The notes under the pieces are model-generated. The model was not told the DNA's origin. It saw only the letters and a program-made list of their open reading frames with translations, and did not search any database. From Reclinomonas americana ATCC 50394 (taxonomy: Eukaryota): 64,000 nucleotides of DNA. Positions 29,364 to 58,242 of the stretch are shown one piece after another (positions within the stretch are counted from its first letter, which is position 1; every line of letters starts with the position of its first letter). Position numbers and translations under genes: made by a program. The stretch spans positions 44,231-108,230 of the forward strand of contig PS015059.1 of NCBI GenBank assembly GCA_048213135.1, read 5' to 3'.

Positions 29364-32300
29364 GAAAACGAGTTCTTTGCCAGCGTGTTGCAAGGTCGTC
29401 TGGCCGAGGCACAGGCCTACTTGACTGCTGCCGGTCTCCCATTCGCGGCCGACGCCGACTGGGTGCAGCACTTGTTGCAGTGGCGCGGAGAGGTGCCGGC
29501 AGTCGCCATCGCCAGTGCTGCTCCGCAGACACGCGCGCGAAAATCGGCATCGTCATCATCGTCAAGTGTACATGCGGATGTGCTGAATGCGGCGGTGATG
29601 ATTGGTGCTGAGGAGCATGTACTGCGCTTCCTTGTGCGCGCAGGTGTGTGTGTTTTGTGTTTGGAAGCAGCGGTGGTGAGAGAGTGATTGATTGTGATTA
29701 TTCCGCATGCAAAGGCGCCAATCCGTTCCGTCGTGATGTCGACGGCTTGTCGGCACTGGATCGTGCTCGCGAGTCGAAGCGCGGTTTGCATTCGCGTCTC
29801 CTCTTTTGTGCTGCGGTTTGTGTCGGCAAGAGTTTGACAGTGTTGCGTGCAGGTGACGTGTATGAGTTCTTGTTGCGAGAGTTTGAGGCGCATCATGCGC
29901 AGCGCGAGGTGCAGTACCACAACTTCCGTGATGAGATCGAGGCGCAGCACCCGATTGACGCCGAGGCGCTGTTGAGTGGCGGAGAGAATTTGATTTGTGT
30001 GTTGTCTCGTGCTATGCGCTCACTCTGTTACGATTGGTCGCGAAGCGTACGCAAGTTCGTGCCACACACGATCCTCTCCACGTTCTGGGACAATGTCAAT
30101 GTTGCGTCGCGTGTTGCTGGTGGTGTGGCCGCACTGCGGTGTGGCGGCAGTCGAGACTGACCTGTTGTCGTGTGCGTAGAATCCGGAGAGCGCCGACGAA
30201 CCGTGCTTCATGGAGCGCCACGATGGGCAATGGGTGGCGACCACGTGGCGGCAGTACGGCGAACTGGCCATGTGGGTCGCCTTTTATCTTCTTAGAGTAA
30301 TGCCTGGACTCGCTGCGCTCACTCATTGAACTCGCACAGTGCTGTTGGCAAATCGCTGCGTGCACTTGGTCTGCGACACATTGCGGAGGCAGAGGAGAAG
30401 CACAAGGTGGCGGTGTTGTCGCGCAACTGTTACGGCGTGATGCATCATTGGTGGTGTCAGTGTGCTTGCTTTACCGACACCGTGTCTGTCAGGTGTCAAA
30501 TTCATGGCCGCCGACATGGGAGCCATGTGCATTGGCGCCGCAACCATGGGCATCTACTGCAGCGAAGCCACATCAGGCGTGCAGTACATGTTGCGTGTTG
30601 ATGTTTGTGTACGCGCGTGTGTGGCCGGTGGAAATGTACTCATGCGGCAGCAGTGTGGAGAACTCGAGCAGCCACGTCTTGTTTGTCGACGGCATCGAGC
30701 AACTGCGCAAGACTGACCCCTTCCGTGATAGCATGCCGCCGTATTTTCGTGTTCGTCTCCCAGCGCATTCACTCGCGTCGTGTGTTTTGACACTCAACAA
30801 AGTGTGCGTACGTTCGTAGGTGGTTGTGTTTGAGTCCAAGCCTGGCGAGTTGCCGGCCGATGAGCGTGTGCTCTCGTGGAGCCAGTTCATTGCGCTGGGG
30901 AGGTGAGAGACCGGCGGAGGTGTTCTTGCTGGATATGCGTGACTCACTTTGTGGTCGGTGCAGCGAGGAAGCAGATGGAATCGAAGACTTTGCGCGCTCC
31001 ATCCCTGAGGAGGAGTTGTGCATGTTGGTGTATGTGCGTGCAAAGTGTCCAGGCTTGTGTACATGTGGCGTCCTTGTTTTGACTTGTGTGACGCCTCTGC
31101 ATGCAGACCTCTGGCACAACGGGCAATCCAAAGGTGCGTCTTTTGATTCGCGCACACTTTTCGACTGACCAGCTTACGTACTCTCTCTCTTTCTTTCTTT
31201 CGCGCAGGGCGTGATGTACAGCCACATCAACCTGGCGCACCAAGTTGACGGTATGATGCAATTGCTGCCACCTGGGCGATTCGACACCCTCAGGTTAGTC
31301 GTGCTACGCCGCATGTCATGTGTGGACTTTGGTCACCACTCACCGCACCCCGCAGCTTTTTGCCACTTTGCGTGCGTGACAATGAAGTGCACTTCTATTT
31401 CCTGCACTCGTGTGCTGACTCTGCATCCTGCCTTTGTGTGTGCGTGCGCGAATCACATGCAGCACATTGTTGCGTGCTGTGGAAGCGTAGACGGTGGCCT
31501 TGTGCATCCACTCACTCCCCATTGTGTGTGTGTGTGAGTGCAGGCTGAGCGCATTCAGGGACAGGTGAAGATTGTAGTTACATCTTGTTTGCTTAGCAAG
31601 CGCAGTTTCTCATCGCCCTTCTTGCAGCTCCTGCACATTGGCAAGGTCAATTGCACGTGGTTTGGCGAGAGCGTGTACGTTGCGTTGCGCTGTGTGCCAG
31701 TATCTTTCTTTGTGCATTGATCGTGTTGACTCGGTCGCTGCCTGCATCCATACCTAAATCAGACGGTGCTGAAAGACCTTGTCGACGTGCGTCCGAGCAT
31801 GTTGCTCTGTGTCCCGCGTCTGTGGCAAAAAATTCATGACGAGGTAACTTTTTGTCGCTCGTTTGCTACTCTCCAGCGATTACTTGAATGACTTTCTCAC
31901 GTACGCTCACAAAACAGATGCGTCGCAAAGTCAAGCAGGCCGGCACCGTGAAGCAGACTCTGTTCAACACGGCGCTCTCGATCGGCGACCAGGTGCGCGT
32001 TCTTCGCAACAACGGCCAGTCGATTCCACTTCTGCTCCGAGCCAAGTGGGCAGTGATGAAGATGCTTGTGGTCAACAAGGTGTGCGCGTCGTCGTGCCAA
32101 GCACACGTCAGTTTCAAGTTCACTAACGTTGGCTGTGTGTCCATGTGTGTCTCTAGGTCAAGGTCTGCACTGCGTACCACTCCCCATTTCCGTCTTGTCA
32201 GCGTCACTTATGCCGTCGTTGTGCAGCGCGCGCTCGGCCTCGACCGGTGCTACATGCTGGCCTCGGGTGCCAGTGCTCTTTCGGCTGAGGTTCTTGCCGT

Positions 32301-34269
32301 TCACACGCAAACAGCAGTGCGTTGTGCATCCCAGCTAATCTTGCATTTTGCTCAGGTGTCACGCTTCTTTGGCAGCCTGGATCTCGACATTCAAGTATGT
32401 GCACTTTTTTGGTGTGTCCACTGCGCTCACTCTCTATGACCCCCTCATTCATGTTGCAGGAAGTGTATGGGAGCAGCGAGTGCACCGGTTGTGGTACCTA
32501 CAATCCGCTGCCTGGCCGCGGTCCTGGTGGCGCCGGTGTGCGACCGGGAACGGTACGTCAGCATCGTTCTTGCTCGTTTCTGGCTGCTGCTGACGATGAT
32601 GCCGATATTTTCTGTTCACCAGGTGGGCATCGCGTTTCCTGGCATGCAGGTGCGCACGGGCGCCAAGGGCGAGGTGCTCTTCCGAGGACGTTGCGCAACC
32701 ACAGCGTCTGCTGTCTTGATCGCCAACGGACAACTCATCTATTCTCTCTCTCTGTCTCTCCTCTCCCATTGTGTTACCATTAGCCTGCGTGTTCATGGGC
32801 TACCTTGGAGCTCCTGTTGCGTCTGGAGATCGACGTCATCTCACCTACTGTTGACTGATCTGACACTTGTATCTGCGCACAGGAAACAACGTGCGTGCTT
32901 GTTCCCCTCTCTTACTTATCACTTGCCCCTTTCCTCTTTCACATTACACGCCGATGCGCAGCGCGAGTGCCATTGACGAGGACGGCTGGCTGCAGTGAGT
33001 GACTCTTGAGGGCCAACGTTGCTTCGCCACGTAGAGTGTGCTCATGCATGTGAATTCATTCACTGCAGCACTGGCGACGTGGGCCGTTTCACCGAGGAAG
33101 GCTACTTGATGATTACCGATCGGTGCGATTGCTGTCCGTGACTGTGAGAGTAGGTGTCGTTCAAATTTGGTCTCACTCTCGTCTCCGTTGTTGCTCGCAG
33201 GCTGAAAGAGGTTGATTCTTCGTGTGCTGCGACTTGTGTGAAATGACTGCCTCTCATCGGTTCGCATCGTGTACGCAGTTCCTCAAGACTGAGGGCGGCA
33301 AAATGGTCGCACGTGCGTATGTATGCTCGCCTCCATCGCGGTGTCGATGGAAAGCGATGGTGACTCATTGACATTGACGCTCATCGTGCAGCTGCGCCGA
33401 TTGAGCAGCGCTTCAAAATGTTCCCCATCATCTCACAGGGAGTGCTCATCGGTGATGATCGCAAGTACCTGGCAGCGTTGGTGTGCCTCGATGAGAGTAC
33501 CAAGCCAGTGGAGGTACGGCGTCGCGGATACTAACAGGTGGGACGCACAGTGCCTCATTTGAGTGCGTCACAGATCGATGGCGAGACTGTGGAAATCAAG
33601 GCCAACTTGCTGGTTCGTTTTCGTTGAACAGAGTGTATCATCTCTTGCTGGTGTTGAGTCATAGGTGGATTGTAGGCGTGGCTGCGTGAGGAGTGTGGCA
33701 TTGAGGTGCCGAACCCGCGCGAATTGACTGCAGAGCAGTTCGTGAAGGACGAGCGTGTTGCGTGGAAAAGATTGTGTGCATCGATTGCTCGCAGTTGTAC
33801 ACGCTCAATCCTACGCATAGGTTCTTGCGCGCATTGGCGAGTACGTGCGGTAAGTGGCGATGAGAATTCATGGACGGGGCGTGGCTGTGCGACGTTGCTG
33901 ACCCGTCGCGCAGTCAAATCAACGAGGGCAACGAGCGCATGCCGGAGGCGCTTCCTGGCTACGAGCGTATCAAAGTGTGGGAGCTGTTGCCACGCGAGTT
34001 CTCAGTAGCCAGCGGCGTTGCGTCTGGGCGAATATCTCCTTTGTTTTGTGCACGCGCGACTGCTGACGCCTCGTACTCAATAATAGGAACTGACTCCGAC
34101 ACTGAAATTGAAGCGCCGGGTGGTGCAGGCCAACTACAAGGATCTCATCGACGAGATGTACCGCCGCAATGACGCCGCATTCCAGCAGGCTGCTTCGTGC
34201 GTACCCATCGTTGCTACTTGCCGGCTACTACCGCCATCATCCTCACGTGCACACGTCAGTCGCAAATAA
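29364..34269 (+). CDS. Long-chain fatty acyl-CoA synthetase (AMP-forming, ACSBG/FadD15-like) with N-terminal ankyrin repeat; about 35 exons; first exon probably in gap
   Basis: Spliced motifs LVY|TSGTTGNPK|GVMYSH, TL|SFLPLC|HI|AER, VPRLWQK, Q|EVYGSSE, GEVLFRG|PCVFMGYL, DGWL|HTGDVG, ITD|RLKE|FLKTEGGK, G|ELTPTLKLKR. N-terminal VLRFLVRA|GANPFRRDVDGLSALDRA. Confidence 0.92.
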
Positions 34270-34367
34270 TTTCCACTCGGGGGGAATCAGAAGAGGAGTG
34301 CAAAACCACAACACCATTGAATTACCGTTGACAGAAAGGAAGGTGAGAACAAGAATGAATCGTCTAT

Positions 34368-57468: not shown

Positions 57469-57511
<43 letters not shown>

Positions 57512-58242
57512 TGAGTGCGCGAGTACTGACTGCGTGACGTGCAGGATACACATCTCTGTATCTGTTTGGCGTGTGGACGGGCATGCTGGCCAACCGCACC
57601 TATTGTGCCTCACCCAAACGGCCATCCATGGTATGTGTGTGCCAGCTGTCTTGTCGTGTTTTGTCGACAGCAGTTTCTCATGTGCACCTTTGGCACAGCG
57701 CCCGCGCGTGGCCGCTGCTGTTGCTGCAGTGGTCCTGATTGTGAGCTTTGTGCTGGCGCACGTGTTGCAGCCGTCGCGTCGTCTGGTGTGTAGATTGCTT
57801 CCAGTGTGCAGACGAACCTGTCTTGGGTGCGCTAACTCGCACGAACAGCTCAATGCTGGCTACATTTGCCTGGTCATGGCGCTGGTGGCGACGCAGATGC
57901 TGATGCTCGCGTGGCCGGCGGGAGCGCGGCACGAGGAGAGTGCTCTTGTGCGCGCACTCAACGATAACGCCATGCTGGTGTTCCTTTTTGTTGCGTGGTG
58001 TGCGGTTTGTGCGTTGATGATCATCATCAATCCTGAAACCCCCCGTCATGCAGGCCAACTTGACGACGGGTGTGGCCAACTTCTCGCTGGTCACCATCGA
58101 CACCGAAGGTCCACTGGCCTACTTTGCTCTGCTGCTGCACTGTACGGCGTTTGCTGTGTTTGCACTGACACTGCGGTCGCGTGGCATCTCGTTTTCGATG
58201 CGCTCCCTCGTCAAGAAGGACGACGGCCTGAAGACCGAATGA
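55947..58242 (+). CDS. PIGW: GPI inositol acyltransferase PIG-W / Gwt1
   Basis: [101 protein letters not shown]. Confidence 0.95.

Follow-up and report, generated by a model that had tools for sequence, protein, structure and literature searches.

The object of this study is a window of 64 kilobases (kb) from Reclinomonas americana ATCC 50394 (contig PS015059.1, positions 44,231 to 108,230 of the forward strand), a GC-rich (~57%) stretch of a gapped draft assembly with 12 runs of N, and within it the 5' splice sites (donors) that begin with GTTGCGT or with the related words GTTGAGT and GTTACG. An earlier note, made from the sequence, had proposed that these donors form a major class which is routinely recognized by shifted or bulged pairing with U1 small nuclear RNA (snRNA). 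The genes found in the window are the following:

~4.2-7 kb, minus strand: kinesin gene (Pfam/homology)
29.6-34.2 kb (29600..34200), plus strand: bubblegum-type acyl-CoA synthetase gene (Pfam/homology), source of most of the comparison donors
37.4-38.1 kb, plus strand: tandem ubiquitin-like gene (Pfam/homology)
40.5-42 kb: CPL/Puf-A-like gene (Pfam/homology)
44.9-47.4 kb (44971-47377), plus strand: GH3 glycosidase gene (Pfam/homology)
50.3-54.1 kb (50300..54100), plus strand: ERCC6L-type SNF2 helicase gene, with GTGAGT, GTGAAT, GTGTCG and GTGCGG among its comparison donors
56-58.2 kb, plus strand: GWT1 gene (Pfam/homology)
58.4-59.8 kb (58400..59800), minus strand: TKL-type kinase gene; of its 9 introns, 4 have a shifted donor

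Exon ends were placed with a purpose-written protein-to-genome aligner, which allows introns at any GT...AG, with GC penalised as a start, and has no other knowledge of splice sites. For the synthetase the queries were a profile and nine or ten homologues, and for the helicase 12 diverse ERCC6L proteins. The closest match of the synthetase, and the sole match in a protein search of all libraries, is P0001, a fragment of 220 amino acids that is 65% identical; a protein search using one synthetase exon alone gave no match. The earlier note had placed GTT[GA][CA]G donors by reading frame and motif continuity, and 14 of these are now fixed by homology, Pfam or kinase motifs, being distributed as six in the synthetase, three in the helicase, one in GWT1 and four in the kinase. 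The kinase donors, fixed by motifs and frame, are the part of its further minus-strand sites that was borne out. These donors, and a probable one near the end of GWT1, are listed below, where −1 denotes the last exon base:

30429..30435, plus strand, synthetase: GTTACGG, −1 T, phase 1; chosen with 6 of 8 single homologues and the profile
30590..30596, plus strand, synthetase: GTTGCGT, −1 T, phase 2; 3/8 single homologues, and also the profile under three penalties
31469..31475, plus strand, synthetase: GTTGCGT, −1 T; profile at three penalties; directly 3' of a micro-exon of 6 nucleotides (nt)
32690..32696, plus strand, synthetase: GTTGCGC, −1 C, phase 1; 11/11 and 8/8 queries, P0001 (65% identical) included
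32816..32822, plus strand, synthetase: GTTGCGT, −1 T; 6/11 and 6/8 queries; followed by an 8-nt micro-exon at 32883-32890
34017..34023, plus strand, synthetase: GTTGCGT, −1 C, phase 0, before ELTPTLKLKRR; 8/11 and 7/8 queries
51281..51287, plus strand, helicase: GTTGCGT, −1 T, joining GCVLG to DDMGLGKT; 12/12 homologues
51892..51898, plus strand, helicase: GTTGAGT, −1 A, joining TPVQNNLG to ELWAIFDFV; 12/12 homologues
52943..52949, plus strand, helicase: GTTGCGT, −1 T, joining ELLLKN to VYSYVRLDG; 5/12 homologues
56418..56424, plus strand, GWT1: GTTGCGT, −1 T, phase 1; Pfam GWT1 positions up to 121 lie in the exon before it and those from 123 in the next, a single codon being split
57990..57996, plus strand, GWT1 C-terminus: GTTGCGT, −1 T, probable donor; the downstream exon begins at GWT1 profile position 398
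59716..59722, minus strand, kinase: GTTGCGT, −1 C, joining VLGS to GGFGKV; three-frame reading and GxGxFG motif, next exon from Pfam kinase profile position 10
59435..59441, minus strand, kinase: GTTGCGT, −1 C, joining EYVPGGDL to HGWLKS...; frame and subdomain order
59276..59282, minus strand, kinase: GTTGCGT, −1 T, joining STMAF-L to HVIGVVHR(D); frame and HRDLKPAN motif
58813..58819, minus strand, kinase: GTTGCGT, −1 C, joining YMSPEIL-R to GDDAYNKSVDVYSFG; frame and APE...DVYSFG motif

In the synthetase, the junction at 30429 yields ...LSRN-C-VKFMAADMG, to be compared with the consensus ...LSRN-R-PEWALADLA, and that at 30590 yields VQY-I-VENSSSHVLFV, the consensus being IAY-I-LEDSE. Around 31469 the profile alignment reads SFLPLC/HI/AERIQGQ with the consensus SFLPLA HI FERTTGH (here and below a slash marks an exon boundary), and at 32816 the queries that do not choose the donor skip the 8-nt micro-exon. 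The kinase exon that follows 58819 matches positions 179-210 of the kinase profile in Pfam, and the exon upstream of 57990 in GWT1 has no Pfam match. At 52943, another 5/12 of the homologues choose a GC three bases downstream. The plus-strand segment 52943-52966 also holds two phase-0 donors in tandem, since a textbook GTAAGT lies 18 nt further on from the GTTGCGT at 52943; use of the GTAAGT would insert six residues (VACVAE) absent from the homologues, and alternative splicing may occur here.

The synthetase gene has an extreme intron density, with ~28-29 introns of 56-94 nt each and exons that are often shorter than 100 nt. It also contains three micro-exons on the plus strand, at 31463-31468 (6 nt), 32157-32162 (6 nt) and 32883-32890 (8 nt), which the aligner recovered without a splice-site model. 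The first reads CACATT and encodes His-Ile, the HI of PLAHIxER, while the other two restore the VK of VVNKVKxALG and the E-T-T before ASAIDEDGW, respectively.

We have estimated the frequency of the shifted class only from the three genes in which all introns were listed irrespective of donor type, and it amounts to 11 of 40 donors (27.5%), being 5/22 in the synthetase, 2/9 in the helicase and 4/9 in the kinase; in the full set placed by homology the proportion is 14/41. This agrees with the earlier description of a major donor class, and within the genes of the window roughly one intron in every three to four would start with a shifted donor. In other respects the two kinds of intron are alike, as the median length is 69.5 nt for the shifted and 71 nt for the others, the composition is similar, and a CAG acceptor is dominant in both; the introns are short and carry CTGAC/CTCAC-like branch motifs. 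Two special origins were considered and discarded. A mobile, introner-like family is ruled out, as the only resemblance among the 37 intron bodies is in stretches of 9-14 nt, for the most part perfect 9-13-mers shared by CT-rich bodies, and none of the 14 shifted donors resembles the 5' end of U12-type introns, of which the consensus is [AG]TATCCTT.

The motif itself is in excess in the window, irrespective of gene models. GTTGCGT occurs 41 times (25 on the plus and 16 on the minus strand), to be compared with expectations of 13.0 (order-3 Markov model) or 16.7 (order-4), whereas the other GTNGCGT words amount to 23 on both strands together (GTAGCGT 1, GTCGCGT 14 and GTGGCGT 8). Among the eight genes whose orientation is known (19.6 kb), the sense to antisense ratio of GTTGCGT is 22:2 (p=3.6e-5), 22 of the 27 sense GTTGCG words are followed by T, and the 22 sense copies stand beside 29 of GTGCGT and 17 of GTGAGT. 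We have also carried out a donor-blind test, in which an acceptor matrix trained solely on introns with ordinary donors was used to seek a good acceptor 55-95 nt downstream. Such an acceptor follows 24% of the GTTGCGT words (10/41) and 27% of GTTGAGT, compared with 5% of all GT, and it follows neither GTTGCG[ACG] (0/38) nor GT[ACG]GCGT (0/23) (p=2.6e-5). Taken on the evidence of the sequence, GTT[G/A][C/A]G(T), mostly in the form GTTGCGT, is a genuine and common type of 5' splice site in this organism.

Microsatellites of the (GT)n and (GA)n types, and of an unusual (TACG)n type, border the assembly gaps at 9.6-10.9, 43.9-44.6 and 57.0-57.5 kb and inflate the raw counts of GTACGT. The positions 18595 and 24620 have the same GTTGCGT context and lie in a duplicated stretch at 18-29 kb, in which near-identical segments recur (18145-18770 versus 24173-24790, and also 20.3-20.9 kb and 26.6-28.0 kb); the stretch, which also encodes long coiled-coil repeats (ELETTRDRL...), looks like a tandem duplication interrupted by gaps.

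The relation of the class to the ordinary donors becomes evident when the two are compared base by base. GTTGCGT matches the ordinary G/GTGCGT at 6 of 7 positions, all but the second, and the rarer GTTGAGT and GTTACG parallel the ordinary GTGAGT and GTACGT. The difference lies in the last exon base. In ordinary donors it is G in 16 of 23 cases, compared with a background of 26% before GT in coding sequence (p=1.3e-5), whereas in the shifted class it is G in none of 14, which has p=6e-8 were the true rate 16/23, and p=4.4e-6 in a Fisher test versus the other 27 donors. On the other hand, the four GTT donors that have no displaced consensus (GTTCTT, GTTGAT, GTTAGT and GTTTGA) all end their exon in AG (4/4, p=6e-5). 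At position −2 the 14 shifted donors have A in 3, C in 2, G in 4 and T in 5. On checking coordinates, 17 of the 18 sites listed in the earlier note begin with the motif given for them, while its position 30111 reads GTGTTGC, the GTTGCGT being actually at 30101; the site at 32690 is GTTGCGC rather than GTTGCGT. The absence of G at −1 holds for all 18 (0/18).

This absence must be read with the coding background. Before internal GTT in coding exons the base is T in 40 of 90 cases and G in 8 of 90 (9%), and relative to this NGTT background neither the 0/14 G (p=0.27) nor the 8/14 T (p=0.25) of the shifted class is unusual. Thus, G is indeed missing but is not actively depleted, and a T preference or G avoidance at −1 as the sign of an extra base pair was rejected. 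Exon position −1 would simply not be under selection in the shifted class, which is what pairing in a shifted register predicts, because in that register the intron's own G+1 fills the slot opposite U1 C9.

Three other donors were noted for having a better-looking GTGCG 2-6 nt downstream of the cut, namely those at 59186 (minus strand, GTGTGTGTGCGC), 53433 (plus strand, GTGTGTGTGC) and 32080 (plus strand, GTGTGCGCG). In all three the first GT is demanded by a conserved protein motif (in the kinase, HR/D) and the exon ends in AG.

The last exon base also bears on whether the class is an artefact, with junctions misplaced or with the extra T being an assembly error within ordinary GTGCGT donors. 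Such an insertion would be intronic and leave the reading frames intact, the draft is gapped with its 12 N runs, and eight of the 18 sites listed earlier are not fixed. However, a random extra T would preserve the ordinary G at −1, expected in ~70% of cases and seen in 0/14; unaltered donors with a pyrimidine before GTGCGT (Y/GTGCGT) are present at 31034, 32891 and 33313; the same GT is chosen by up to 12/12 independent homologues; and the Pfam coordinates continue without a break at the level of single residues. An artefact is therefore very improbable.

We have then counted base pairs with AUACUUACCUG, the sequence of the U1 5' end given in PMC4856993, which may not be this organism's U1. 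The shifted donors form on average 4.1 pairs in register 0 but 6.6 when moved to register +1, while the ordinary donors form 7.5 and 4.4, respectively. We infer that U1 is the reader of these donors and that it would bind them in the shifted register. In this scheme the contacts that read G/GTGCGT, chiefly the U1 5' end, would bind GTTGCGT one base deeper in the intron, the intron's first G would take the slot usually filled by the last exon base, and the cut would stay before GU, since it would be selected by later steps (U6, U5, Prp8). That a shifted +1 register of the same snRNA contacts reads the GTTGCGT donors is the explanation towards which we incline, and we hold it to be somewhat probable.

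The routine recognition proposed earlier was worded as shifted or bulged, and it is the shifted version that is favoured by the pair counts and by the missing G at −1. In a bulged register, U1 would pair with G+1 and U+2 in the normal way, one U (+2 or +3) would bulge out, and pairing would resume at GCGU. On the intron side its pairs would be those of the shifted register, with G+1:C8 and U+2:A7 kept in addition, and according to the legend of Fig. 1C in PMC4856993 such a register is proven for some human sites. Nevertheless, it would leave U1 C9 free for the exon base, and selection for G at −1 should then be at least as strong as in ordinary donors, whereas 0/14 is observed against 16/23 (p=6e-8), and the weak GTT donors of normal register do carry AG in 4/4 cases. 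The exon-side pairs of the bulge register (−1 G, −2 A) are thus not kept, with −1 G in 0/14, and we regard this arrangement as improbable, being a poor fit to the missing G.

Several points weigh against pairing in a shifted register, or against the class as described here, and they are of different kinds. All the counts come from one 64-kb window, which is a small sample, and the positions of the junctions derive from alignment with homologous proteins under the GT-AG rule. Among the 18 sites listed earlier, eight fall in poorly conserved stretches where their placement is merely plausible (30101, 31679, 33757, 40702, 41097, 41796, 50350 and 52712); that at 52712 is chosen by 3/12 and that at 50350 by 1/12 of the ERCC6L homologues, and the hand models of 31679 and 33757 are supported by length agreement with the profile only. 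Even at 51281, chosen by all homologues, the intron and the exon after it begin with the same base, so that homology alone cannot tell GT...AG from TT...GG and the choice between them rests solely on the GT-AG rule. As for the energetics, RNAduplex gives for most GUUGCGU sites with canonical U1 only −0.6 to −1.7 kcal/mol in any register, the duplex being weak because of two internal mismatches, and with such energies canonical U1 in the shifted register would bind poorly. Finally, 12 of the 14 shifted donors have GCG, compared with about half of the ordinary donors with a GTGCG, GTGAG or GTACG core, and this dominance counts against a simple shift, which does not predict it.

The energies of the ordinary Y/GUGCGU donors are barely better (RNAduplex, −2.2 to −2.7 kcal/mol with canonical U1), and the weak pairing of both kinds of site would fit a changed or second U1, or another snRNA, with a 5' end complementary to GUUGCGU, in which case the genome would have two hard-wired donor codes. 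The sharp definition of the class (12/14 GTTGCG, with T at +7) and its high frequency point in the same direction. Against this, the apparent preference for T at −1, which could have been an extra pair to such an RNA, equals the background (40/90 coding cases; 8/14, p=0.25), and the canonical U1 5' end, ACUUACCU, is to our knowledge almost invariant among eukaryotes. No spliceosomal snRNA, U1 and U6 included, was found in the 64-kb window with Rfam, either at gathering thresholds or at E≤1; the hits were one transfer RNA (tRNA) and otherwise microRNA, small nucleolar RNA and untranslated-region families, nearly all of them piled on a few repeat-rich spots. The U1 of this organism may differ where it faces +3/+4, or a second U1 may be present; we nevertheless judge a changed, second or other snRNA of this kind unlikely overall, and the stricter proposition, that there are two discrete codes of G/GTGCGT-type and N/GTTGCGT-type and that the latter is read by a dedicated variant snRNA and not by slippage of canonical U1, slightly less likely still.

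Weak pairing with canonical U1 could also mean that U1 pairing is not relied upon at all, a protein or U6/U5 alone reading UGCGU at a loose distance and the nearest upstream GU being cut. The donors GTGTGCGCG (32080) and GTGTGTGTGCGC (59186, minus strand), in which the GCG core is even farther from the cut, would be in line with this. The far-core donors, however, all have AG before the cut and pair with U1 at 7-10 positions in the normal register, and the ordinary donors keep the classical selection for G at −1 expected of U1 or U5 contacts; recognition of this sort is, in our estimation, as improbable as the bulge. Hence, with the points raised above kept in mind, the shifted register of the existing contacts is the interpretation that we retain.

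The remaining features of the window concern its gene content. In the GH3 glycosidase (44971-47377, plus strand) there are open frames as long as 446 and 328 codons. The Atlas clusters closest to it are bacterial, and the gene may have been acquired by recent transfer and have taken up few introns since. The segment 37403-38110 (plus strand) has no introns and encodes three or more ubiquitin-like units of 76 amino acids in tandem, ending in ...LRLRGG. Each unit is markedly unlike standard ubiquitin; in a metagenome scan the nearest sequences, apparently ordinary ubiquitin genes, reach only ~70-76% identity, with no genome of a close relative among them. A tRNA-Pro(AGG) gene is found at 55704-55776 (plus strand), between an acidic/proline-rich open frame (54125-55657) and GWT1.

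Comparison with known systems shows both likenesses and differences. In human, according to Tan et al. 2016 (PMC4856993), atypical donors read by U1 shifted by one base were described by Roca & Krainer 2009, and all validated noncanonical U1 registers together make up 1.5% of 201,541 5' splice sites. As in those shifted donors, the cut here is at GU, the remaining consensus lies one base deeper and the intron's G+1 would replace the exon's −1 G. By pair count with canonical U1, maybe not that of the host, more pairs would also form in the +1 register, but the duplexes predicted here are weak. Unlike them, a single shifted class accounts for ~27-34% of the donors of the window, compared with the 1.5% of all human registers together; the core is GCGU where the human one is AAGU; and the human sites have proof by suppressor U1, while the evidence here is that of sequence. 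The human bulge +2/+3 register (Roca et al. 2012, cited in PMC4856993) shares the extra U between GU and the remaining consensus, but it keeps the exon-side pairing, a signal that is absent here (−1 G in 0/14). A whole genome that departs from the standard donor pattern is also a feature of appendicularian tunicates (Fritillaria), where noncanonical introns are lineage-wide and a shifted U1 register is considered too, the authors (preprint, 10.1101/2025.08.15.670264) only speculating on it; in contrast to Fritillaria, in which the terminal dinucleotides change, GT-AG is kept here and only the extended consensus moves. No account of a GTTGCGT-type donor class was found by full-text searches of the literature, and the organism's own genome paper may mention one.

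With respect to the rare noncanonical registers of human, the GTTGCGT class is notable for its frequency, and its properties suggest that the splicing machinery of this organism may routinely read the donor signal in two registers. In every well-studied eukaryote that we know of, the extended donor signal lies at a fixed distance from the cut, and displaced registers are rare exceptions, each proven site by site. If indeed some every third or fourth intron is displaced, the organism would offer a natural system for studying how the cleavage site is chosen independently of the position of U1, how U6 handles a displaced consensus and how donors of this kind come to spread in a genome. In practical terms, gene finders with a single donor matrix would misplace many exon ends in this genome.

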